Source of the DNA: Eledone cirrhosa
Lineage: Eukaryota
Direction of reading: 5' to 3'
Assembly (NCBI GenBank): GCA_964016885.1
Contig: OZ024745.1
Location: 100,688,001 to 100,752,000 of the forward strand
DNA: 64,000 nucleotides
The notes beneath the pieces were generated by a model, which saw nothing but the letters and a program-made list of their open reading frames with translations, was not told where the DNA came from and made no database searches. Made by a program: the position numbers and the translations under genes. Of this stretch, positions 29,531 through 61,180 are shown piece after piece; the stretch's first letter is position 1, and each line of letters opens with the position of its first letter.

Positions 29531-30238
<708 letters not shown>

Positions 30239-30274
30239 CATATATATATATATTTATATATATATATATATATA

Positions 30275-32521
30275 CCGAAAATAATTAACATTTCAAATAC
30301 AAACCTCTCAGCCCAACAAGTAAAAATTCTCTCCAAAGGTCTGAAATTCACACCAACACCACAATACCCTAACCCCAACGAGATAAATGACGATATCTCA
30401 CACTTCTGTAGAAAATTACGTCTCACAGAGGAATTCTTTGACAAGGAGAATAACGACGAATCAATTGTACGGACTAAAAGCAGCTACAACCCAACAAAAG
30501 GTAGAAACAGAGTTCTGGACAAATTTTGTGACCACATAGCTACCTTCCCATACCATGAACTACCGCAACCTAAACCCAAACCCAACACAAGTCGAAGGGA
30601 ATGGGAGATTATCCATGAACTAAAAAACAATACGGACATTGTAATTAAGGAAGCGGACAAGGGAAGTACTGTTGTCATTATGGAGGCTGAAAAATATAAA
30701 AATTCTATGTTCTCTCTCTTACAAAATACTAATTACTATGAAAGAGTAAAAAACTACCAGCAATCAGAAATAATGACCAAATTAAACACACTGATTTATC
30801 GATACCAGGAAGACCTAACTAAAAAGGAACGCGATTATTTAACAAATTTTGAATACAAAACCAGCAACCTTTACGGACTTCCGAAGATCCACAAATGTAA
30901 AATAATCAACGATGCCTGTAAACAATCCACCTCAGCCTGCTGGAACACACAATACCCCACAGACCTTAAATTAAGACCAATTGTAGCGGGCCCACAATGT
31001 GAAACACACAGATTGAGCAACTTTATAGACATACTACTGAAACCAATACTGAAACACATACCAAGCCTTGTAAGAGACGATCTGGACCTCTTAAACCACC
31101 TCCCCAAACATGTCAACAACGACACTATTATTGTGTCTTTCGATGTAGTGAATCTCTACACAACGATCCCACACCAATACGGACTAGAAGCAATAGGATT
31201 CTGGCTAGAGAAATATCCCAATGAGATACCTGACAGAATAGAAAAAAGCTTCATCATCGAGGGATTAAAATTCATTCTACAGAACAACTTTTTTGATTTT
31301 GATGGCAATACTTACAAGCAAATATCGGGGACTGCGATGGGTACAAAAGCCGCTCCAACTTATGCCAACTTAGTCATGGCGTACTTAGAAGTCCAGATAT
31401 ATGAACAGTCCAAATCAAAATACGGATTGAACTTCCACAAATATTTATCAGAGAATTGGAAACGCTACTTGGATGATTGCCTCATTCTTTGGTCCCACAC
31501 ACTCGACCAACTGAAGGATTTCAAAAACTTAATAAACGGCATCAATAACCACATCCAATTCACAATGGAATACAGCCAAGATCAACTCCCATTTCTGGAC
31601 ATCTTAATCATAAAAAAAGACACAAATATCGAAACTGACATACACTACAAACCAACAGATTCCAAACAATATCTGCTATTCACCTCCAACCATCCAAAGC
31701 ACACGAAGACGAACATTCCTTTTAAACTAGCAAGAAGAATTTGCACAATTGTCTTCAATTATGAAACGCGAAATAAAAGACTTCAAGAATTAAAGGAAAT
31801 TCTACTCGAGAGAGAGTACCCACTATTACTAATAAATAATGGAATAGAAAGGGCTAAAGCAATAGGCATTGATGAATTACGGAAACAGAAACAAATTCAA
31901 GGTACGTCCAATATTCTATCATATATCTCAACACACAACCCAAGAAATGCGGAAGCTTACAACACTATTCACAATAACATCCCACTACTAAAACAAAACC
32001 CAAGAATGAAAAAAGCCCTTGAAACACACAAAATAATCAAAAGCAAAAGACAACCAAAATCACTGAAAACATTACTCACCAATGCCAAATTACCTACCAC
32101 AAACCCACAACCAAGTATCAAAAAATGTAGTCGCTCTAATTGTGGAACCTGCACTCACCTCATTGAAGGCAACACGTATACATTTAAATCAGGACAAAAT
32201 TTTACTGTAAAAAATCACTTCACTTGCTCATCAAAAAATCTAATTTATGCCATTAAATGTAAAAGATGCAATGAAGATTATATAGGACAAACCAAACTCA
32301 CACTCAGAAACAGAATGACAGTTCATCGCCAACAATTACGAGATCCAACCACGAGACAGATACCACTAAGTGCACATATAGACATTTGCGCAAGTAATAA
32401 GACACCCAAATTCCAAGTCTTCCCATTTTACCTTTGCGCTAACAATACAACAGAACAAATGCGAATAAATAAGGAAAATATGTTTATTCAAAAATATAGA
32501 CCAACATTAAATAAGGTTTAA
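30275..32521 (+). CDS. PLE reverse transcriptase / GIY-YIG endonuclease (open frame extends 135 codons upstream of the ATG at 30680)
   Basis: LSKGLKF and ADKG N-terminal motifs, [42 protein letters not shown], Cys linker CSRSNCGTC, and [15 protein letters not shown]. Confidence 0.93.
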
Positions 32522-47893: not shown

Positions 47894-48132
47894 TATTTCT
47901 TTATTAGCCACAGGGGCACAAAAGAAGGGGACAAATACAAAGGGGGAAGTTTACATACAATAAAAACGTGTAAAATGTTATCACAGATGGAATTTAAAAG
48001 TTAGTCGATTTTCCCCAATAGAGGGAGACAGTTTATATGGGTAACACAGACCCCCGAAAAAAATGTGCAACCCTCATCTCCAGGAGTACGAAGAGCTTGT
48101 ACTCCTTTCCTCTCCTCCTCCTTTTCCTCAAC

Positions 48133-51100
48133 CTACAGGCTGATATAGAGAGAAGGCCCATTCACTCGGGCCATTCTCGCCACTTTCACCCACCTTTCAT
48201 AAAACTTGCTGGGGTACAGCACCTCTCTCTCCATCCTGATTCTTCTTCCAAAGTGGTATTTGAAAAAAAGAATCAGTTGTTGGCCGGAGAGAAAGGTGTC
48301 TGACCTCAGCCCTTTCAACCTTGTCCACCATACAACCTCTTTCGCCATAGCTATCACACAAAGGAAAACCGCCTCTCCTTCGTTTTTGAAGGAGGGTGGC
48401 GGTTTGATCATGACAATGGACTCGGTGGTCAACTGGATTGGTCCCACCCGCGACAATAGTCGTTCTACATAGCCCCACAGGTCAGTGACGCCCGGGCAGT
48501 GTATGAATGCGTGCGCGACGGTTTCTTCGTCTCGCACGCACCTCGGACAGATCTTTTTTGCAGGGTCCCTGCCCGGGCGCCCATGTCTGTAGAGCTTGTC
48601 TCGAACTGGTAGAGCTCCTCGGTAGCACTGCCAGGCCAGGGACTTTTGGAAGTTGTCCATCGGTCCCGGGCGGAAGGTCCTACCGAACAGACTGGCCAGT
48701 TCATCTTCCTCCACGCCTAGAGTTTCACCGAGCGCGTCGTCGCACTTGCTGCGGACCAACCCTCTATAGAATGACGAAGTGGAGTCTCCACTGATCGCCG
48801 GGTCCGCCTGCCAGAGGGCTGTGAGCGCCTGAGCACATTCGATGTGCCAGTCGCCCATTTTCCTCGGTCTCTGCTTGACCCAGGACTGCAGCTCGGTCAG
48901 CGAGACGAGTCGTGGGAAGGCTCGCCTCACGAACGGGGCCCACACCGGTTGTCCGGTGAGGAATACGTAGAGATGCCGCAGCCTGAGCGCGTGTTTGCGC
49001 ATCGTCAACCACGGCATCCCCAGCCCTCCGTTAGAAGGGTGTTGGCAGCAGATGGATCTTCTTACCAAAGGAGCCCGCCTCTTCCAAAGGAATCGGAAGA
49101 GGGCGCGCTCCATTTTGGCGAGCGTTTTGGCTGGACAAGGCACGACGGTCAAGCGGTAGTAGATGGCGGACGCTATAAAAGTGTTCGCCACCTCCGCTCG
49201 ACCTTTCAAGGATAGTTTGCACTCGGCCCACTTCTGGGTGAGTGCAAACACCTTGGCCGTCACTTCGTTCCAGTTCTTCTCCACCTGGAGGTCCGGACCA
49301 AACCAGACCCCGAGCAGCTTTACCGGTCCTTCCGTCCAGCGTCCGACGACGCCATCGGAAGGCATCGGTCTGCCTCTCCACGATCCGAGTTGCAAACCGA
49401 TGGACTTGTCCCGGTTCAGCTTCGCTCCTGTGAGACTTTCGTATTCCTTTAGTAAGGTGCCGACTTCCTCGATTTGCGAGGCGCTCGACACCATTACTGT
49501 CACGTCGTCGGCGTAGGCCGACGCCGCTTTCCGCAGTCCCGGTTCCAGAGGGATGCCCTGCAATAGCTCCAGCTTCCGCAGTAGTGGCTCGAGAGTCAGT
49601 ACGTACAGAAGGGAGGAGAGAGGGCATCCCTGTCGAATGGATCGCGTAATATGGAACGGCTCCGAGAGGTAACCGTTCACCTTGACCCTTGAGCAGATGT
49701 TGCTGTTGTGCATTGCAGCAATCCAGCCCCTGAACTCGGGTCCGAAGCCTGCCGCCTCGAGCACCGCATCCAGGTAACGATGGTCAACCCTATCGAAAGC
49801 CTTAGACTGATCCAAGTTGATCAGGGCCCCACCGAAGCCGGGTTTACACCCTACCCTCTCTATGATGTATCGCATGAGGTGGAGGTTGTCGTGTATGGAC
49901 CTGGTCGGGATCGCGCATGTCTGCGCTTCTCCCACCAGGTTCTCGACGACAAGCGCCAGCCTCTTTGCCAACACCTTGGCCAAAATCTGTAACTCTGTGT
50001 TTAGCAGAGTTATGGGCCGGAAGTTGCCTATGTCATCCCCCTTATTCTCGTCCTTCCTGATTAGTGTGACCACGCCCCCGGTTACAGAACTGGGAATTCT
50101 CCCGTTCTGTTGCCAGTTGCAGTAGACCGCTTCCAGGAGACCGGAGAATAAGTCCGGCATTGCTACGTAAAATTCGTAGGGTAGACCGTCGAGACCTGGA
50201 GATTTGCGTTTGCCGCATTGGCTCAGCGCGTCCCCTATCTCAGTGGCTGAAATCGGCTTTTCGCAGAACTTCGCCTCGCTGTCCGAGAGTCGCGGTAGGC
50301 CGTCGAGGTATGGACCGAAATCCATAGCCTCTCCCGGCGCGCCGCTCCCCCCGAACAGCCGAGCAAAGTGCCGCTGAAAAGCCGCACACATCTGCTTCGG
50401 CTCACGTATCACGCGTCCGTTTTGGTCCTTCAAAGACCGAATCGTGGACTTGTTGCCACTTTTTGCCTCCGTCACTCGGGCCCAGCTAACAGCTTTGGCT
50501 CCCTCGTTTCCCAGAGCACGTATTTTGCTTCTGACAACGCAGCCCTCGTGCTTTGCGTCGAAGAACTGGTCCAAGGCCGTTCTCGTTGCTAGCACGCTGG
50601 CTACGTTGCCACTTCTAATTGCCTCTTCTACTTTATCTACCAGTTCCTTCTCGGTTCTATTTCTATCTAACGCTAATTCTTTACTAAAAACTATCGAGTC
50701 TAATCTAACTGCCCTCTTGAGAGAGTACCACCATCTGTTGTTGACAATGGCCCCTGTCAAGTGCTGTTTAACTAAAGTGCTAATCCGTCTACTGTAGGCT
50801 TTGCTTGTCGGTAACGACAAGTTCAGCTTCCAGTAGCCGGGTCCTTGTCTATGGGTTCTATCAAGGTTGGCCATGCAGGTCACTAGTTTGTGATCTGAAT
50901 AGGCAACCATGAACATTTGTGGACAGCTTAACATGTCCCTATCCTTATTTCTAACTAGAACCCTATCTAGGTACGATCTAGATGTTCCGCTACGATTACT
51001 CCACGTCCACAGTGGCGCAGTCGGAAAATCTAGTCGATATCTATCGGCCAGGTCAAATCGGTCGATTAACTGTTTGAGGCTGTTACACCCCCCTTTATCG

Positions 51101-51570
51101 GGACATGCTCCCACATAGTCCCAACGTGCATCTAGGATTCCATTCCAGTCCCCCACTAAAAGCAAGGAGCGGGACGTTCCCAGAAAAGTCTCTAGACGTT
51201 TGAAGAAGTCTGGCCGCGGTGTCCCGGATGGGGCATATGCGGCCACCAGCCTGAACGCTCCACCTTCACTACCGTCAACGTCTAGGACCACCAGTCGACC
51301 CTCCGGGTCCAGATGTACCGTCTGTGTTACGAGGCCCAGGTGTTTCCGCAGCAAAACGGCAACTCCGCCCCCACCCCCCGGTTGACAGAGAGATGCGTAG
51401 ATCTCAAAGTCATCGAAGATGGGGGCCAGCTGTCGCTCGCCGTGGATCCTGGACTCGCAAATGGCTACCACATCCAAACTGTGCGACCTGAGGTCGTTTA
51501 AGAGTTTGCCCTGTTTCCAGGGCATCCCCAGGCCGCGTACATTCACACATCCAACTCTTATATTGGCCAT
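48133..51570 (-). CDS. LINE ORF2: APE endonuclease + reverse transcriptase + C-terminal CCHC zinc-binding domain (1145 aa)
   Basis: NVRG, ICES, GDWN, SYLDR, SDH (APE). KSPGLDG, FRPITLLN, LDQSKAFD, RQGCPLS, YADD (RT). CPRC..ETVAHAFIHC. Confidence 0.96.
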   Translation of the reverse strand: MANIRVGCVNVRGLGMPWKQGKLLNDLRSHSLDVVAICESRIHGERQLAPIFDDFEIYASLCQPGGGGGVAVLLRKHLGLVTQTVHLDPEGRLVVLDVDGSEGGAFRLVAAYAPSGTPRPDFFKRLETFLGTSRSLLLVGDWNGILDARWDYVGACPDKGGCNSLKQLIDRFDLADRYRLDFPTAPLWTWSNRSGTSRSYLDRVLVRNKDRDMLSCPQMFMVAYSDHKLVTCMANLDRTHRQGPGYWKLNLSLPTSKAYSRRISTLVKQHLTGAIVNNRWWYSLKRAVRLDSIVFSKELALDRNRTEKELVDKVEEAIRSGNVASVLATRTALDQFFDAKHEGCVVRSKIRALGNEGAKAVSWARVTEAKSGNKSTIRSLKDQNGRVIREPKQMCAAFQRHFARLFGGSGAPGEAMDFGPYLDGLPRLSDSEAKFCEKPISATEIGDALSQCGKRKSPGLDGLPYEFYVAMPDLFSGLLEAVYCNWQQNGRIPSSVTGGVVTLIRKDENKGDDIGNFRPITLLNTELQILAKVLAKRLALVVENLVGEAQTCAIPTRSIHDNLHLMRYIIERVGCKPGFGGALINLDQSKAFDRVDHRYLDAVLEAAGFGPEFRGWIAAMHNSNICSRVKVNGYLSEPFHITRSIRQGCPLSSLLYVLTLEPLLRKLELLQGIPLEPGLRKAASAYADDVTVMVSSASQIEEVGTLLKEYESLTGAKLNRDKSIGLQLGSWRGRPMPSDGVVGRWTEGPVKLLGVWFGPDLQVEKNWNEVTAKVFALTQKWAECKLSLKGRAEVANTFIASAIYYRLTVVPCPAKTLAKMERALFRFLWKRRAPLVRRSICCQHPSNGGLGMPWLTMRKHALRLRHLYVFLTGQPVWAPFVRRAFPRLVSLTELQSWVKQRPRKMGDWHIECAQALTALWQADPAISGDSTSSFYRGLVRSKCDDALGETLGVEEDELASLFGRTFRPGPMDNFQKSLAWQCYRGALPVRDKLYRHGRPGRDPAKKICPRCVRDEETVAHAFIHCPGVTDLWGYVERLLSRVGPIQLTTESIVMIKPPPSFKNEGEAVFLCVIAMAKEVVWWTRLKGLRSDTFLSGQQLILFFKYHFGRRIRMEREVLYPSKFYERWVKVARMARVNGPSLYISL

Positions 51571-51603
51571 GTTGGTGCTGAAAAGTTAAAAGAGGAAAAG
51601 AGA

Positions 51604-53520
51604 TCACTCACCCTTCGCCTCCTGGGGACCAGGCCGCACGATTTCCATGGGGGTGTTGGAGGGGTTGTCTGGATGGGTGGTGGTTTCCGGTGGGGTGGGG
51701 ACGCAGATGTTTGGTGGGGTGGGGTCTGGTGGGATGGGGGTGTCTGGGGTGGGGAGGCATTTGAGAAGGACGCGGTTGAGTGGTTTCACGCAGGAATTCC
51801 CCACATCCTTCTCAAATGTTTCTTTTAGGGACCTATAAGTTTGTATAGGGACCCTAATCAGTTTTAGGTTCATTTTTTTGCTATTTTTTATAGAGTGGGC
51901 GAAAGTTTTCCCTTCGGTGAAAGCCGAAGGGTCGTTCGTAATGGTCTCCATTAGTGTTTTGTTTTCAGTGTTTATGTAAGTGTAAGTGTAATTTTCTTGT
52001 GTTGTGTTTGTTTTTGTCTGTAGTTCTTGTGTGTGCTTTCGTTTTGTTGTGGGTATTTTGTTTTCAGGAGGTGGGGGTTTTGTTTGTGATATTTTTGTTG
52101 TTTGTGTTGGTGGTTGTATGTTTGTGGTAGTGTTTGCTGGTTTTTTGCTTTTGTGATGTCTTTTCTTTCTTTTCGAGCGATGGGGTTCTCCCTCGTCTTC
52201 ACTGGGTGATGGCGAGATAGCCTCATCTGTTGTATCGTCTGTGTGATTGGGGAGGGGTATGTCTTGGGGAGCTGTTGTGTCTGTATGTGATTTTGCAGTG
52301 GTTTTAGGTGGAGTGAGGTTGGGTGGGACTGTGTTTGTTGTGGTTATTTTTGTGTGTTGGTGTTGTTGTTGTAGTGGTGGTGTTGGTGGTTGTGTTGTTT
52401 TGATGGGTGTTGGCAGAAGAGCCTTTTTTTGGTTCATTAGTTTAGGACAGGAAGCCCTCAGGTGACCCCTGCTAAAGCAATGGTAACATGAAGGCCGCCT
52501 ACCCTCAACTGAAAGGTTTATGTAGGTAAGTCCGTCCAGGAGTACACGCTGTGGGATCATAGCTATTCGCTCTGGGCTCATTTGCACCAGAACTTCAATG
52601 CTAGTCCCATTGAATACATCTCTGGGGGACTTGCCTACTGACAGTATTCTGTCTTCATCAAAATTGATGAAGCCGCACAGTATCCACCATATGTTCACCT
52701 TTGGTGTGACACTTGTGATTCTGATCTTTTGTGTCCTTTTTCCCATGTATGTAGGGAAAAAGGTGTACAGGTTGGATACAATTGGCGACACAGAGTAATT
52801 TTGGGCCGTCAATTGATCCTTCATCAGTACCGAAATACTCCCAAAAAGTTTGCTTCTTTGAATGAATGCAATATCATTCATTGAATCTTTGAAAACCAGT
52901 TCAATATCTTTCTGTGACAATTGGACTGGTTTTCGGGTAGAATTGGATACTGTCCTAAAAACTATCGTTTTGAGAGCAGTTTCCTTGCGAATTTCTACCG
53001 GAGAATTGATGCTGAAAGCACCATTTTTTTCGAAGGTGACATATCTCTTAGCGTCCTTTAAAAGGTGTTCAGCATTTGTTATGTCGAGATATATCAATTG
53101 TTCTTTCTTTTGAACTTTCTCCGCAAAGGAGATTTTTGGTTTCTTTGTGGAATCCGTATTGGTGGTGTTGTCATTATTGTTGTTATTCTTGTTTTTATTC
53201 TTGTTGTCACCGATGTTGGTATCATCCGTATTTTCCTTGGTGTTGTTGTTGTCTTTGATGCTGGTGTTATTGGCGTTGTCTTTATTTTTTTCTTTGTTGT
53301 TGTTATCATTGTTGCTTTTATCATCATTATTGGTTTTGCTGTTATTTTTGTTGTCATTGAGCTGTTTGGTGTCATTTGTGTTGTTTGGATGTGTATTCGT
53401 TTTTTTATTTTCATTTTGTCTTTCCATCTCTATAGTATCTAGTGAAGAAGACGTTGTTGACTGCGAGCTTTGTAGTCTTACCGCCTCTCCACCACCATTA
53501 TCGTTGGACGCAGCGTTCAT
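51604..53520 (-). CDS. LINE ORF1 (gag-like, CCHC zinc knuckle, Asn-rich and Pro/Thr-rich regions, 638 aa)
   Basis: CYHCFSRGHLRASC knuckle. Lies 33 nt upstream of ORF2. Homologues in copies 2 and 3. Confidence 0.9.
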   Translation of the reverse strand: MNAASNDNGGGEAVRLQSSQSTTSSSLDTIEMERQNENKKTNTHPNNTNDTKQLNDNKNNSKTNNDDKSNNDNNNKEKNKDNANNTSIKDNNNTKENTDDTNIGDNKNKNKNNNNNDNTTNTDSTKKPKISFAEKVQKKEQLIYLDITNAEHLLKDAKRYVTFEKNGAFSINSPVEIRKETALKTIVFRTVSNSTRKPVQLSQKDIELVFKDSMNDIAFIQRSKLFGSISVLMKDQLTAQNYSVSPIVSNLYTFFPTYMGKRTQKIRITSVTPKVNIWWILCGFINFDEDRILSVGKSPRDVFNGTSIEVLVQMSPERIAMIPQRVLLDGLTYINLSVEGRRPSCYHCFSRGHLRASCPKLMNQKKALLPTPIKTTQPPTPPLQQQHQHTKITTTNTVPPNLTPPKTTAKSHTDTTAPQDIPLPNHTDDTTDEAISPSPSEDEGEPHRSKRKKRHHKSKKPANTTTNIQPPTQTTKISQTKPPPPENKIPTTKRKHTQELQTKTNTTQENYTYTYINTENKTLMETITNDPSAFTEGKTFAHSIKNSKKMNLKLIRVPIQTYRSLKETFEKDVGNSCVKPLNRVLLKCLPTPDTPIPPDPTPPNICVPTPPETTTHPDNPSNTPMEIVRPGPQEAKGE

Positions 53521-53558
53521 AACGTAATCAAAATTTTACAATATTTTTTCCAAGATTC

Positions 53559-53608
<50 letters not shown>

Positions 53609-53609
<1 letters not shown>

Positions 53610-56600
53610 TTCTTTATTAGCCACAAGGGCGCAACAAGAAAGGGGACAATACAAAGACATGCCGGGGATTTTACATACAGTCGTGTAAAAAATATAAAAA
53701 CAAACAATTTCAACAATCGAAATCCCCAATAGGGGGGAAGCGCCACAAATGGGTTGTTTAATACCCCGTCGATAGAACAACCCTCAACTCGAGGAGCGTG
53801 TTGTGCAAGTGCTCCTTTCTTCCTTTTGCTCTCTTCCTCAACCTACAGGCTTATAAACAGAGAAGGCCCAATCACTCGGGCCATTTTCGCTTCAGTCACC
53901 CACTTTTCAGTAAATTTACTGGGGTGCAGTGCTTCTCTCTCCACCCTGGTTCTCCTTCTAAAGTGATACTTAAAGAAGGGAATCAATTGTTGTCCGGAGA
54001 GAAAGGCATCTGTCCTCAGTCCTCTCAACCTCGTCCACCATATAACTTCTTTCACCATAGCCACCGTACAGAGGAAAACCGCCTCTCTTTCGTTTTTGAA
54101 AGAGTCTGGCGGTTTGATCCTTACTATGGACTCGGCAGTCAACTGTATTTGTCCCATACGCGACAGCAGTTGTTCTGCATAGTTCCACAGGTCGCTTACG
54201 CCCGGGCAGTGTACAATTGCGTGCAGAACTGTTTCAATGTCCTGCGCACATCTTGGACACGTCCTCTTGGAAGGATCCCTGCCAGGGCGTCCGTGCCTGT
54301 AGATCTTGTCACGAACCGGTAGAGCTCCTCGGTAGCACTGCCAGGCCAGGGACCTCTGGAAGTTGTCCATAGGTCCCGGGCGGAAAGTCCTACCAAACAG
54401 ACTGGTGAGCTCATCGTCTTCGACGCCCAGAGTCTCTCCGAGCACGTCGTCGCCCTTGTAATGTACAATCCCTCTATAGAATGTCGAAGTGGAGTCTCCA
54501 CTGATTGCTGCGCCCGCTTGCCAGAGGACTGTGGGCGCCTGAGCGCATTCAATGTGCCAGGCGCCCATCGTTTTCGGTCTTTTCTTCACCCACCCAGGAC
54601 TGCAGCTCCGTTAACGAGACGAGCTGTGGGAAAGCCTGTCTCACAAACGGTTGGGGGTCGGTGAGGAATACCTGGAGATGCCGCAGCCTCAGCGCATGTT
54701 TGCGCATCATCAGCCACGACATTCCCAGCCCTCCGTTGGAAGGGTGCTGACAGCAGACGGATCTCCTCACCAGCGGAGCCTGCTTCTTCCACAGAAACTG
54801 GAAGAGCATGCGTTCCATCTAGGCGAGGTGTTCACGGGGACAAGGCACGACAGTCAAGCGGTAGTAGATGACGGACGCTATGAAAGTGTTCGCCACCTCC
54901 GCTCGACCTTTCAAGGACAGTTTGCACTCTGCCCACTTCTGAGTGAGTGCAAACACCTTGGCCGTGACCTCGTTCCAGTTTTTCTCCACCTGGAGGTCTG
55001 GACCGAACCAGACCCCGAGCAATTTCACCGGTCCGTCCGTCCAGCTTCCAACGACGCTGTTGGACGTCATCGGTTTGCTTCTCCACGTACCGAGTTGCAA
55101 ACCGACAGACTTGGCCGGGTTTAGTTTTGCTCCTGTCAGCGTTTCGTATTCTTTCAGTAAGTTGCCGATCACCCCGATTTCCAAGGTGCTCGACACCATT
55201 ACCGTCACGTCGTCGGCATAAGCCGACGCCGCTTTGCGCAGTCCCGGTTCTAGAGGGATGCCCTGCAACAGCTCCAATTTCCGCAGTAGTGGCTCTAGAG
55301 TCAATACATACATGATGGAGGAGCGAGGGCACCCTTGTCGAATGGAACGTGTGATTGCGAACGGCTTCGACAGGTAGCCGTTCACCTTGACCCTCGAGCA
55401 GAGGCTGGTGTGCATGGCCTCGATCCAGCCTCTGAACACGGGACCGAAACCGGCCGCCTTGAGAACCGCTTCCAAGTATCGATGGTCGACCCTATCGAAT
55501 GCCTTAGACTGATCCAAATTGATCAGAGCCCCACCAAAGCCGGGTTTACTACCCACCCTCTCTATGATGTATCGCATGAGGTGGAGGTTGTCGTGTATGG
55601 ACCTGGTCGGCATTACACACGTTTGCGCTTTCCCTACCAAGTTCTCGACGACAAGCGCCAACCTCGTCACGAGCACCTTGGCCAAAATCTTTAACTCTAA
55701 GTTATTAATTTCGTCCCCCTTGTTCTCGTCTTTCCTGATCAGCGTTACTACGCCCTTTCCTGCAGAACTGGGAATTGTCCCGTTCTGCTGCCAATTGCAG
55801 TAGACGGCTTCGAGGATGCCAGAGAACAAGTCCGGCATGCCTATGTAAAACTCATAGGGTAGACCATCTAGACTTGGTGACTTGCGTTTCCCGCAGCGAC
55901 CCAGAGCGTCCCGTATCTCAGTGTACGTGATTGGTCTATCGCAGAACTCGGCGTCCGTGTTCGAGAGACGCGGCAGGCCGTCGAGGTATGAACTAAAGTC
56001 CATTACCCCGTTCGGCTCACCGTAGTTCTGCTCAAACAGTCGCGCAAAGTGTTGCTGAAAGGCTGAGCACATTTGCTTGGGGTCAAGTAGAACGCGTCCA
56101 TTTTGATCTTTCAAAGACCGAATCGTGGACTTGTTGCCACTTTTTGCCTCCGCCACTCGGGCCCAGCTGACAGCTTTCGCTCCTTCATTTCCTAGAGCAC
56201 GTGTTTTGCTTCTGACCACGCAGCCTTTGTGTTTCGCATCGAAGAACTGGTCTAGTGCCGTTCTCGATTCTAACACTCTAGCCGCATTGACACTTCTAAG
56301 TGCCTCCTCTACCTTGGCTACTAGTTCTCTTTCTAGTTTGTTTTTCTCTAAGGCTAACTCTCTGCTAAACCCTATCGATTCTATTCTAAATGCTTTCTTG
56401 AGAGAGTACCACCATCTATTGTTGACGATGGCTCCTGTTAACTGTTCCTTGATTAGTCTTCTTATCCGTTCACTGTAAGCTTTACGTGCCGACAACGACA
56501 CGTTCAGCTTCCAGTATCCGGGTCCTTGTTTATGTGTTCTATCATGGTTGACTAAGCAGACGACTAATTTGTGATCTGAATAGGCAATCATGTGCATTCG

Positions 56601-58866
56601 TGGACAGCTTAACATCTTATCCCTTTCTCTAATGAAGAACTTATCTAAATACGATCTAGATGTCCCGCTGCGGTTTGCCTACGTCCACTGTGGTGCAGTC
56701 GGGAAATCCAGTCGATACCTATCGGCCAGTTGGAATTGGCCGATTAAAGTTTTGAGGCTGTTGCACCCCGCTCTACTGGGACATGCTCCCACATAGTCTC
56801 ATCGTGCATCTAGGATACCATTCCAGTCCCCCACTATAAGTAAGGAGCGAGACGTTCACAGAAAGAACTCTAGACGCTTAAAGAAGTCTGGCCGTGATTG
56901 CGATTGCCCAGTCTGAAGGCTCCACCTCCAATACTGTTCACGTCTAGGACTACCAGTCTACCCTCCGGGTCCAAGTGTACTTGCTGTACTTCGATGTCCA
57001 GGTTCTTCCGAAACATGACAACCAGTCCACCCCCACCTCCTGGCTGACAGTGAGATGCGTAGATCTCAAAGTCGTCGAAGATGGGGGTTAGTTGCTGCCT
57101 GTTGTGGATCCTGGACACGGTGATGGTTATCACATCCATACCGTGTGACCTAAGGTCGTTTAAATGTTGGCCCTGTTTCCACGGCATCCCTAGGCCACGC
57201 ACATTCACGCTTCCAACTCGTAAACTAGCCATGTTGGAGAAGAAGAGTTGGAGAAAACGGGCGAAAGGTGCACTTACCTTTTCGTTTCCTGGAGATCGGG
57301 TTGTTCAATCTCCATTTGGGTGCTGGATGGGGTGTTGGGTGGGGTGGGGAAACATTTTAACAGGACCCGGTTGATGGGTTTCTGGCAGGGGTTGCCCACG
57401 TCCTGTGAACATTTATTTTTTAGGTCATTATAGGTTTCCATAGAAACCCTTATAAGTTTAAGGTGTGGAGACGATTCTGACTTGACGAAAGTTTTGCCCT
57501 CCGTCTCCACTTTGGGGTTTTGGGAGATGACCTCCATCAAACTCTTGTTTTTTGTGTTGATGTATGAGTATTGATGTTTGTGTTTTTGTTGTGTTGTTTT
57601 AGTTTGTTGTTCGTCCGGGAGTTTTCTTTTTATGGTGGGTGCTTGTGTTTGGGGTGGTTTGGTGTTGGTTTTGCTGGTAGGGGGATGTTTGACTGTGGTG
57701 TTGTTTGTGTTGTTGTTTGTGTCTGTGGTTGTGTGTTGGTGTTGGTGATTGGAGTTTGGGGGGTTTTGTGGTGTCTCTTTTTTTGTTTTTTAGATTTCCA
57801 CGGCTCTCCCTCTTCTTCACTTAAAGAAGGAGAAGCAGCTTTCTCCGTCTATGAATAATAATCGTCAGGTGTGTGGGGTAGGGGTATGTTGTGTGGTGGT
57901 GGTGTTTCAGTGTGTGTGTTTGTGGTAGTGTTTGATGGAGTGGGATGGGGTGGGGCTGTGTTCATCAGGGGTGTTGTCTCTGTTTTTTCTGTTGTTGTTG
58001 GTTGAGTGTCTGTTTGTTTTGGTGTGGTTGCTCGTTTCGTCTGTCGTTGTACTTGTGGTGGTGGTGGTTGTTTTGGTGTTGGTAATAGTGTTTTTTAATG
58101 ATGTTGTTGTTGTGTGTTTGTGAAGGACAAGAGACTTTTAGGTGTGCTCTGCTACCACAGCGAAAGCAATGAAATTTTCGTCCTTCTACCGAAAAGTTTA
58201 TTTTGCTGTTATCATCGATGACGACTCTTTCGGGTATTTTGGAGTATCTCTCCGGCCTCATTTGCAACAGAATCTCCAAATCAGTACCCGCCCACCTTTG
58301 TCGAATAGACTTTCGTATCGAAAGAATCATATCAGTTTCTGGCTCTACGAAGCCAGCCAAGATCCACCAGATGTTAATGTTTGGGGTATATATATATTTT
58401 TTTTGTGTCCTTTTTCCCATGTATGTAGGGAAAAAGGTGAATGCTTTTGACACCATTGGTGTAACAGAATGTTTTGGGGTGAGTGCCTCGCTTTTAAACA
58501 GTACGGAAACACTTCCGTACTGTTTTCCTCGTTTGAGAAAATCGATATTTGCTAGAATTTCCTTGAAAGTAGCTTCTATATCTGCTTGACTAACAAATAT
58601 CGGCTTTCTCGTGGAATTGGACACAGTCCTAAAGGTGACTGATCTTAGAACTGTGTCTTCCTTTATTTCAAGGGGTGAGTTAATTCTAAACCCTCCCTTG
58701 TCTTCGAAAGTTACACATTTTCTCCCTTGCTGGAGCATATCTCTTGCATTGGAGATGTCAACATTCATAAAATCTTGTTTTTTGTTCACTGTTTCAGCGA
58801 AAGACATTTTCTTTTTTTGTGTGGTGTTGCTGTTGTTGTTGTTATCGTTGTTAGCCTGGGTGTTGG
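53609..58866 (-). mobile_element. L1/Tx1-like LINE, copy 2 (diverged subfamily, disrupted, 5'-truncated)
   Basis: ORF2 remnants 57232-53843 with stops, frameshifts and loss of FRPITLL. ORF1 remnants 58807-57274 (CFRCGSRAHLKVSC). Same 3' terminus as copy 1. Confidence 0.93.
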
Positions 58867-61180
58867 AAATCTCAGTTCCTTGTCGAGGTGTTTTCGCAGC
58901 AGAACAACCACCCTGCCCCCACCACCCGGCTGACAGAGAGATTCATAGATCTCAAAGACGTCGAAGATGGGGGTCAGTTGGTGCTCGCTGCTGATCCTGG
59001 ACTCGCAAATAGCTATCACATCCATTCTGTGCGACCTGAGGTCATTTAAGAGTTTGCCCTACTTCCAGGATATCCCCAGGCCGCGCACATTTAAACATCC
59101 AACTCTTATAACAGCCATGTTGGTGAAGAGTTTAGAGTGGAGAAAAAGGAAGACACCTACCTGTCCTTCTCCTGGGAACCAGGCTGCACAATTTCCATGG
59201 GGGTGTCGGCGGGGTTGTTTGGTGGGGTGGTGGTTTGGAATGTGGTGGGGACATCAGTGTGTCGTGTGGTGGTGGTGGGTGGGGGGGGGGGGGACATTTC
59301 AAGAGGACGCGGTTGCTAGGTCTAGTACATGGGTTCCCCACGTCCTCGGGAAAGTTCCGTTTGAGCATTGCGTAGGTGTCCCTTGGGACCCTAATCATTT
59401 TAAAATGCGGTTTAGTCACCGCGTTGGTGAACATTTTCCTTTCGGTTTCCACCGAAGGGTCTTTGTCTATTGTTTGCACAAGTGGTTTGTTGTTTGTGTT
59501 GATGTATGTATACTGTTTTTGTTGCGTTGTGTTTGTTTTTGTTTGTTGTTCTTGTGTGTGTTTGCGTTTTGTAGTATGTGTTATGTTTTCAGGAGGGGTG
59601 GTTTTTTTGTTTGTTTGTGATGTTTGTTCTGTTCGTGCTGGTGTCTGTGTGTTTGTTGTATTTTTGTTGATGTGGTGTCTTCTTTTCTTTCTTTTTACCG
59701 GTTGAAAGGGTTCTCCCTCGTCGTCACTGGGTGACGTTGATAAGGGGTCCTCGTCCGTGTTGTTGGGGACGGGTATATTTTGGGGTTTTATTGTGGTTGC
59801 TTTTGTATTTGTTTTAGGTGGGGAAGGGTTGGGTGGGACAGTGTCTTGTGTTGTTATTTTTCCGTGTTGTTGTGGTTGTTGTAGTGGGGGTGGTTGTGTT
59901 GTTGTGTGTGGGGTGGGCAGAAGCGTCTTTTTTTTGGGGGGGGGGCATTTAAAAGGGGACAGGAAGCCCTCAGATGACCACTTCTTGAACAGTGGTAGCA
60001 TGAAGGCCGCCTGCCCTCAACAGAAATGTTTATGAAGACGACTTCATCCAGGGACACACGCTGCGGTATTCTTGCTATCCGTTCTGGTCTCATTTGGACC
60101 AGAACTTCAAGGTTATTGCCGCCGAATACGCCCCCGGTGGATTCGCCTATCGAAAGGATTGTGTCCTCATCTTCTAAGAATCCCTTTAGCACCCACCAAA
60201 TGCTCACATTTGGCCTGATGCTCGAGATTCTTATCTTTTGAGTTCTTTTCCCCAAATATGTGGGGAAAAAGGTGTATGCTTTGGATACAATTGGCGACAC
60301 AAAATATTTCGGTGCCGCCAATTCATCTTGCATTAAAACAGATATGCTTCCATACAGTTTCCCTTTCTGTATGAAAGCGATATCCTTCCACTACTTAGGA
60401 CCAGCTCAATTTCGCTTTGGGACAATTGAGCCGGTTTCCTAGTCGTGTTCGAAACTGTCCTAAAAATTTCGGTCCTGAGGAATTTTTTCCGTTCTAATTT
60501 ATTCGGGGGAGGTAATTGTGAATTCCCCACCTTCCCCGAAACTTACACAATTCCTTGCTTCTTTCAGCAATTTCTTGGCATTCGAGATGTCCAGTGCTTT
60601 GTATGACTGGGTTTCTCGAACCGTCTGTGCGAAGGGGACTGCAGCTGTGGGTCCGTTTTCTTTCGTGTTGTTATCATTGTTGTTGTTTTTATTCGTGTTG
60701 GCTTGCTTTTTTCCTTTGTTGGTGTTGTCATTATTGCTGTTGTTGATTGTGTTGTTATTGTCATTGTTGCTGTTGTTGGTTGTGTTGTTATTGTCATTGT
60801 TCTTGTTTGTGTAATTGTTACTTTTGGAGTTTTCACCCATTTCCACAACTTTTTCTTTTGATTCCGTGGTGTCTTTTGCGCGAATGGGGAGGGAAGGCTT
60901 ACAGCGTTGTGCTGCTACCTTCTCTCTATCACTTTCCTTGGGGGGCGTGGCATGCGTCGTGTTAATGGCGTCCATTGTCACTAAACGACTTTTTATCGAT
61001 AACTTATAACTATCAAATTTCGCCCCAAAAAGGGGCGAAATTTATTTTACCCAACGTCTGCAGGCCCAGGCGAGGGGTTAAACACAACAAATAACAAGTA
61101 GCTTACACAAACCTACCGCTTCTCGTAATAAATTCCGACAAAATGCAGGAGCGAAACAAAAACACGTCTATCTTCTTCGA
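58867..61180 (-). mobile_element. L1/Tx1-like LINE, copy 3 (5' UTR, frameshifted ORF1, first ~84 codons of ORF2)
   Basis: ORF1 from ATG 60975 (CYHCSRSGHLRASC). ORF2 start 59118 MAVIRVGCLNVRGLG. 5' end abuts (GATA)n at 61181-61267. Confidence 0.9.

Follow-up and report, generated by a model that had tools for sequence, protein, structure and literature searches.

A splice-donor motif conserved at the ORF1 end and a predicted ORF2 start-to-stop helix in an L1/Tx1-type LINE group of Eledone cirrhosa

Introduction

In Drosophila copia, the gag RNA is produced by splicing, with an intron that covers the entire pol region (PMC5580714). Where the structural gene ends, both copia and the plant Ty1/Copia shGAG elements EVD and BARE1 carry a conserved donor (PMC5580714), a feature shared by the group of long interspersed nuclear elements (LINEs) described here, which was detected in a window of 64,000 nucleotides (nt) from Eledone cirrhosa (assembly GCA_964016885.1, contig OZ024745.1, positions 100,688,001 to 100,752,000 of the forward strand). 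As in this LINE, the donor of the Copia elements is better conserved than the acceptor, and in them U1 also blocks premature termination (PMC5580714). The Copia elements have long terminal repeats (LTRs), a single open reading frame (ORF) and demonstrated splicing, whereas the LINE is bicistronic and its splicing is predicted from sequence. A helix predicted here between the start and the stop of ORF2 goes unmentioned for Copia elements in the accessible text of PMC5580714.

With the Tx1-clade elements Kibi and Koshi (PMC4494074) the present LINEs share two ORFs, an APE endonuclease and a reverse transcriptase (RT), a CCHC motif in ORF1, and insertion into microsatellites with matching tails, although the targets are TATC and ATT repeats here, unlike those of Kibi and Koshi. 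L1-Tx1 families are also listed for Octopus vulgaris (PMC13282606). Functional splice sites in a LINE RNA are shared with human L1, as seen in SpORF2 (PMC2896524) and the SpIREs (PMC5860796), and the spliced L1 forms can leave retrocopies if ORF2 is retained (PMC2896524, PMC5860796). However, the human splices begin in the 5' untranslated region (UTR), remove 5' UTR or ORF1 sequence and are described as inhibitory dead ends (PMC2896524, PMC5860796); in the present LINE, by contrast, the donor sits where ORF1 ends and has been conserved from lineage to lineage, and its use would take out ORF2. In the open-access literature, outside which lie most subscription papers, Repbase reports and supplements, no LINE was found described with a splice that skips ORF2, with a donor at the ORF1 end or with an ORF2 start/stop helix. 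The arrangement would be a variant of a known retroelement strategy, its spliced RNA being predicted.

Results and Discussion

A donor motif kept at the end of ORF1

The window belongs to a genome of 3.0 Gb, and its DNA is AT-rich with many microsatellites. On the minus strand, positions 61180..47898 hold three copies of a single LINE group. Each of them shows a splice-donor consensus at the ORF1 end, at the places given in a preliminary description of this DNA: 51611 (aagg/GTGAGT, the slash marking the splice point), 57277 (aag/GTAAGT) and 59160 (cag/GTAGGT).

51606..51611, minus strand: donor motif GTGAGT of copy 1 (lineage B1), phase 1, first of 259 GT sites by U1 duplex energy
57272..57277, minus strand: donor GTAAGT of copy 2 (lineage C), phase 2, containing the ORF1 stop
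59155..59160, minus strand: donor GTAGGT of copy 3 (lineage D), phase 2

A different stop triplet had also been assigned to each donor, and the motifs do contain them, but the TGA of copy 1 is not the ORF1 stop, since the ORF1 frame continues K-G-E-stop across it.

The comparison was extended to 12 lineages (A, B1, B2, C, D, E, G, G2, H, I, I2 and J), for which one representative each was ranked, the remaining copies being excluded; the ORF2 DNA of the representatives is 69-95% identical. The motif G/GTRRGT was present in 12/12, 25-47 nt upstream of the ORF2 ATG, and in 11 of these it was the best U1 match among 259-314 GT sites, with rank 2 in the remaining one (by duplex energy with the U1 end motif). 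The donor hexamer is invariant, and the spacer on its 3' side varies freely in sequence and length. In A, B2, C, D, E, I and I2 the hexamer contains the ORF1 stop, which follows it instead in B1, G, G2, H and J. Donor phases 0, 1 and 2 are all found among the lineages (phases in broken copies being assigned through the homology of the ORF1 end), and the E-type copies (L169-L198), with a duplicated or composite ORF1 C-terminus, retain the donor at the new end.

A distant relative, with an ORF2 41% and an ORF1 23% identical in amino acids (aa), carries AAG/GTAAGT immediately after the ORF1 stop, at rank 1 in four of the five copies scored and at rank 3 in the fifth. Its sequences come from tandem arrays of intact LINEs that fill contigs of a bacterial metagenome-assembled genome (CAXXMW01, L218-L257), and are probably contaminating eukaryotic host DNA. 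Judging from all these positions, the donor is kept independently of where the ORF1 stop codon lies. The donor half of the splice-site conservation expected in the preliminary description is thus borne out, both in the 12 representatives and in the distant relative, and as far as this comparison goes the ORF1-end donor is a selected feature, beyond chance.

Predicted pairing of the start of ORF2 with its end

A helix of about 50-70 bp is predicted to pair the donor, the spacer and the ORF2 start with the ORF2 end and the head of the 3' UTR, and the donor, the start codon of ORF2 and its last codons all fall within the pairing.

51535..51608, minus strand: copy 1, 5' arm of the predicted long-range helix, with donor, pyrimidine spacer and ORF2 start (approximate limits)
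48097..48171, minus strand: copy 1, 3' arm of the predicted long-range helix, with the last ORF2 codons, the stop and the purine-rich 3' UTR head (approximate limits)
48012..48106, minus strand: copy 1, three 3' UTR hairpins with compensatory changes

Spacers and purine-rich heads matched by lineage paired with a mean of -25.7 kcal/mol, against -21.5 kcal/mol for mismatched ones (permutation P <= 1e-5, for lineages that are related and not independent), and the matched pairing ranked 1-2 in 8/12 lineages and last in E. When windows of ORF2 and of the 3' UTR were tried as partners of the donor-start segment, with 406-410 ORF2-interior windows per lineage, the window over the ORF2 stop was the best partner in 12/12. 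The donor and its anti-donor covary (P 0.002), GTAGGT facing ACCTAC in A, GTGAGT facing ACTCAC in B2, and GTAAGT facing ACTTGC in C and I. In global folds, the helix forms in two of three sequences (I and A, about 50 pairs). Behind it, the three 3' UTR hairpins hold 21 pairs, 6 of them with two-sided changes, in 10 sequences. In these models, the purine-rich sequence formerly taken for a protein tail is the partner strand of a long-range helix, followed by covarying hairpins.

Candidate acceptors

The acceptors proposed for copies 1 and 2 were also found where they had been placed, namely a CAG ending at 48140 and a TAG ending at 48133 in copy 1, and a TAG ending at 53843 in copy 2.

48133..48142, minus strand: candidate acceptors of copy 1, CAG at 48142-48140 and TAG (the ORF2 stop) at 48135-48133
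53843..53845, minus strand: TAG of copy 2, ORF2 stop and candidate acceptor, read from the sequence

In 10/12 lineages ORF2 ends on TAG, which a crude pyrimidine count, with no trained model, places at ranks 2-11 of 108-127 YAG sites. In the 3' UTR of lineage I a pyrimidine-rich CAG near +177 is present in 15 of 18 3' ends, at rank 2-3, and it may replace the lost stop TAG as an acceptor; lineages other than I also carry occasional AGs in the 3' UTR. The best 3' acceptor of the distant relative lies 251-277 nt inside the 3' UTR. By these measures the acceptor is weaker and less conserved than the donor.

A second top-ranked donor was observed in the distant relative (L222:7482 and equivalents), 14 nt past the ORF2 stop, which suggests a 3' UTR intron between this donor at +14 and the strong acceptor 251-277 nt downstream.

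An internal pyrimidine-rich TAG, 631 nt before the ORF2 stop (window 48764-48766, minus strand), is shared by 12/12 lineages, with a YAG at the corresponding offset in the distant relative. This site was rejected as an acceptor, since it coincides with Tyr-Arg codons and a junction to it was found in no retrocopy; its conservation may be due to coding constraint.

Possible uses of the donor

We favour, with a probability of roughly 0.4, that the donor is used to splice ORF2 out of some transcripts, giving a copia-like ORF1-only mRNA that encodes the native C-terminus, with the helix as a modulator. U1 would bind the ORF1-end donor, the usual acceptor would be the AG of the ORF2 stop and, where this is lost, an AG deeper in the 3' UTR, and the ORF1 protein (ORF1p) made from the spliced RNA would end at its normal end or within two residues of it, with no conserved new tail. 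Within the helix would lie the donor, the ORF2 AUG and the acceptor with the 30 nt that follow it, and its formation would shift the balance towards unspliced genomic RNA. The excess of ORF1p would come from the spliced RNA, in the way that spliced gag RNA serves Drosophila copia. From the splicing switch put forward in the preliminary description, the selected donor remains, with an ORF1-only RNA as its most likely use, and the conserved tail is lost.

The ends of the predicted products are consistent with the favoured reading. Joining at the TAG adds 1-2 residues to ORF1 in B1, A, D, E, G, G2, H and J (8/10 TAG lineages), and 28-33 residues in C and B2 (2/10). In 6/8 lineage groups the phase of the donor itself meets a stop within two residues (P 1e-5 against shuffled 3' heads, but only a marginal P 0.053 when the early stops present in each head are taken into account). 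A more elaborate form, conceivable and rather doubtful, is a retrovirus-like RNA switch in which ORF2 would be a facultative intron and the covarying helix, acting over a 3.4-kb range, would bury donor, start codon and acceptor, in such a way that folding would choose between a genomic RNA that makes and carries the RT and an ORF1-only mRNA that cannot be copied.

Several results weigh against the splicing of ORF2. The ORF2 stop is TAA in lineages I and I2, which fall within the diversity of the TAG lineages and have some copies in which neither ORF is broken, and the stop TAG of the distant relative is a poor acceptor (rank 35-42 of 118-126). The pyrimidine tract and the G behind the TAG are equally accounted for by pairing with the ORF2 start. 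Copy 1 (B1) does not show the helix when folded globally, and the start/stop window ranks top in only 4/6 copies of the distant relative. Finally, B2 and C carry no phase-matched stop.

The search for spliced copies belongs to the same side. The search turned up no retrocopy from which precisely ORF2 is missing, for 1,390 intact A/B2/C/D donors in the genome, a denominator that applies to these lineages only and has no counterpart for the G/H and I searches. The B1 junction probe gave 0 matches in the genome, and the A-D junction pattern gave 8 against 12 in the control, with no real junction among them; the patterns leave uncovered lineages E, F and J and, for A/B2/C/D, the exon starts HT, GVR and most GTR. 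ORF1 ends followed by something other than a donor were joined to the ORF2 stop or 3' UTR in none of the loci followed (30/32, 11/11, 1/1 and 7/7), being point mutants, small deletions, duplications or chance matches. In contigs from sequencing runs of unknown kind, the joints listed (15/127 and 15/47) did not match the predicted junctions, which counts neither for nor against splicing, as contigs cannot show absence. Having in mind the TAA of I and I2, the poor TAG of the distant relative and the lack of any copy minus exactly ORF2, to call ORF2 "one precise intron", as was done at first, was too strong. The missing retrocopies lower the odds of abundant germline splicing and do not abolish them, as an ORF1-only RNA lacks ORF2 in cis. 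L1 proteins favour their own RNA (PMC5860796), and the spliced RNA would be retrotransposed rarely because both ORF2 in cis and the two helix arms would be missing.

At one lineage C locus (L175:1500) the ORF1 end is fused into early ORF2; it was read as a deletion, one base off a GT-AG splice.

The chief rival, which we consider somewhat unlikely, is that U1 docks at the donor mainly without splicing and keeps the RNA from being cleaved and polyadenylated too early, within the A-rich ORF1 or close to it, which would allow full-length RNA, the "acceptor" being a by-product of the helix. It agrees with a donor conserved far better than any acceptor and with the failure to find spliced retrocopies. 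Moreover, each of the 12 representatives has 1-5 AATAAA or ATTAAA motifs on the ORF1 side, within about 350 nt of the donor in 9/12, and none of these motifs occurs inside ORF2 in 8/12. There is also a precedent in EVD, where U1 at the gag donor prevents premature termination (PMC5580714). However, such docking leaves unexplained the phase-matched stops behind the TAG and the CAG of lineage I, and the AWTAAA sites of copy 1 lie more than 1.5 kb from its donor.

Clearly less probable is that the helix is the main device, acting in translation or cis-preference, and that the donor is secondary: the helix would bury the ORF2 AUG until ribosomes terminating on ORF1 open it, and would keep the 3' UTR near the place of ORF2p synthesis. 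The AUG is covered in all lineages, with covariation, and a helix between start and end is predicted in the distant relative too (4/6 copies). Yet pairing alone would tolerate any covarying sequence, and the hexamer remains a U1 consensus while its partner changes.

That ORF1p acquires by splicing a conserved basic tail encoded in the 3' UTR, as first proposed, is very improbable, being largely refuted for the family as a whole. The predicted peptides do translate as described (ACRLRKRRRR... through the CAG of copy 1, RLRKRAKG... through the TAG of copy 2), and B1 (phase 1, CAG) converges with B2 and C (phase 2, TAG) on one frame, open over 27-36 codons in 20/23 distinct 3' heads, though purine-rich sequence seldom contains stops. 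Joined at the TAG, copy 1 meets a stop after one residue, a point absent from the preliminary description. The tail is available only to B2 and C, via the TAG, and to B1, via the CAG, leaving 9/12 lineages without it: the CAG junction gives a basic tail in B1 but Ser-Leu-stop in A and D, the CAG of E is likewise tail-less, and the distant relative can gain no tail because its ORF1 stop precedes the donor. Even among B1 copies the end of the tail shifts, as the length of a T-run differs between them and changes the frame. The synonymous differences between copies that had been noted exist, but they were picked from mostly non-synonymous changes, and the ratio of non-synonymous to synonymous substitution (dN/dS) in the tail frame (0.62, 1.0 and 0.61 for three pairs) is no lower than in the other two frames (0.77/0.29/0.70 and 0.59/2.14/0.69), giving no sign of special constraint; over the last 240 nt of ORF2 it is 0.28-0.61. 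The predicted helix and hairpins account for the tail sequence. A shared-word search found no ORF1 homologues, an exhaustive ORF1 search yielded 107 proteins, and the 6 of these examined showed no R/K tail like the proposed one (one ends in KKWKQN).

A short splice from the donor to an AG of the spacer or of the first part of ORF2, giving an ORF1-ORF2 fusion, has hardly any likelihood: B1, B2, G and H have a strong spacer YAG, which would be in frame for B2, but the spacer is without AG in A, C, D, E, I and J, the intron would measure about 30-45 nt, the donor phases differ, and the RNA would keep ORF2 and should leave retrocopies, of which none were found. That the motifs are non-functional chance relics of one ancestor, which would fit the lack of retrocopies, is just as hard to sustain for a top-ranked donor kept at the same place across 69% ORF2 DNA identity and in a relative with 41% protein identity.

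It has long been asked how LINEs come to make ORF1p in large excess over ORF2p, and how the second ORF of a two-gene RNA is translated. The conserved donor and the covarying start-to-stop helix point to exact bases and junctions that may be involved. If ORF2 is indeed spliced out, a LINE would have arrived by convergence at the gag strategy of copia; otherwise the group would offer a clear natural case of control of a LINE by U1 or by long-range RNA pairing. Either way, the matter bears on the effects on host transcripts of tens of thousands of 3' fragments with acceptor-like ends, the first-look candidates for ORF2 ends in the genome numbering 46,355.

The LINE group and its copies in the window

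The ORF2 of copy 1 has three domains above cut-off, PF03372, PF00078 and PF13966 (APE endonuclease, RT and C-terminal zinc-binding), and its closest solved structure is human L1 ORF2p (E 9e-51), with R2 at E 1e-22. A knuckle C-X2-C-X4-H-X4-C is present in the 643-aa ORF1 frame, and PF00098 was matched in the copy 3 homologue at E 0.0028, below the curated cut-off. LTRs are absent, 5' truncation is frequent and the tail is a simple repeat; TATC runs lie behind most of 30 copies and ATT runs behind those of lineages G-J, as counted without a formal enrichment test. On its domains, its separate CCHC ORF1 and its repeat tails and targets, the group is classed as an L1/Tx1-type LINE. This is a young family with many copies: at 40/40 genomic places scored (715 candidates) the final 601 nt of copy 1 were matched at 100%, and the ORF2-start pattern gave 2,478 genome matches, the control giving 0. 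Scans of metagenomes did not bring up any relatives.

Lineages A-E (L001-L080) end in TATC repeats and lineages G-J (L089-L168) in ATT repeats, which is a target switch inside the group.

The remaining features of the three copies are as follows.

47898..53551, minus strand: copy 1 (lineage B1), young LINE, near full length, flanked by TATC arrays
51604..53520, minus strand: ORF1 of copy 1, open frame of 643 aa with a CCHC zinc knuckle, the first ATG being assumed as the start
48133..51570, minus strand: ORF2 of copy 1, intact, 1145 aa, endonuclease-RT-zf-RVT
47900..47905, minus strand: AATAAA of copy 1, preceding the TATC tail
53610..58890, minus strand: copy 2 (lineage C), 5'-truncated, ORF2 broken by frameshifts
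58886..61180, minus strand: copy 3 (lineage D), with 5' UTR, ORF1, donor and 78 ORF2 codons, ending where copy 2 starts

At the junction 58886-58890, copy 2 starts inside the ORF2 of copy 3 with no TATC run between them, and both may be a chimera or a deletion product instead of separate insertions.

Elsewhere in the window, a fragment of a mariner-type transposase lies at 599-1492 on the plus strand (PF13565, PF01359). An 844-aa open frame at 29987-32521, also on the plus strand, shows a weak RT match (PF00078, E 1.5e-6, below cut-off) and is another retroelement.

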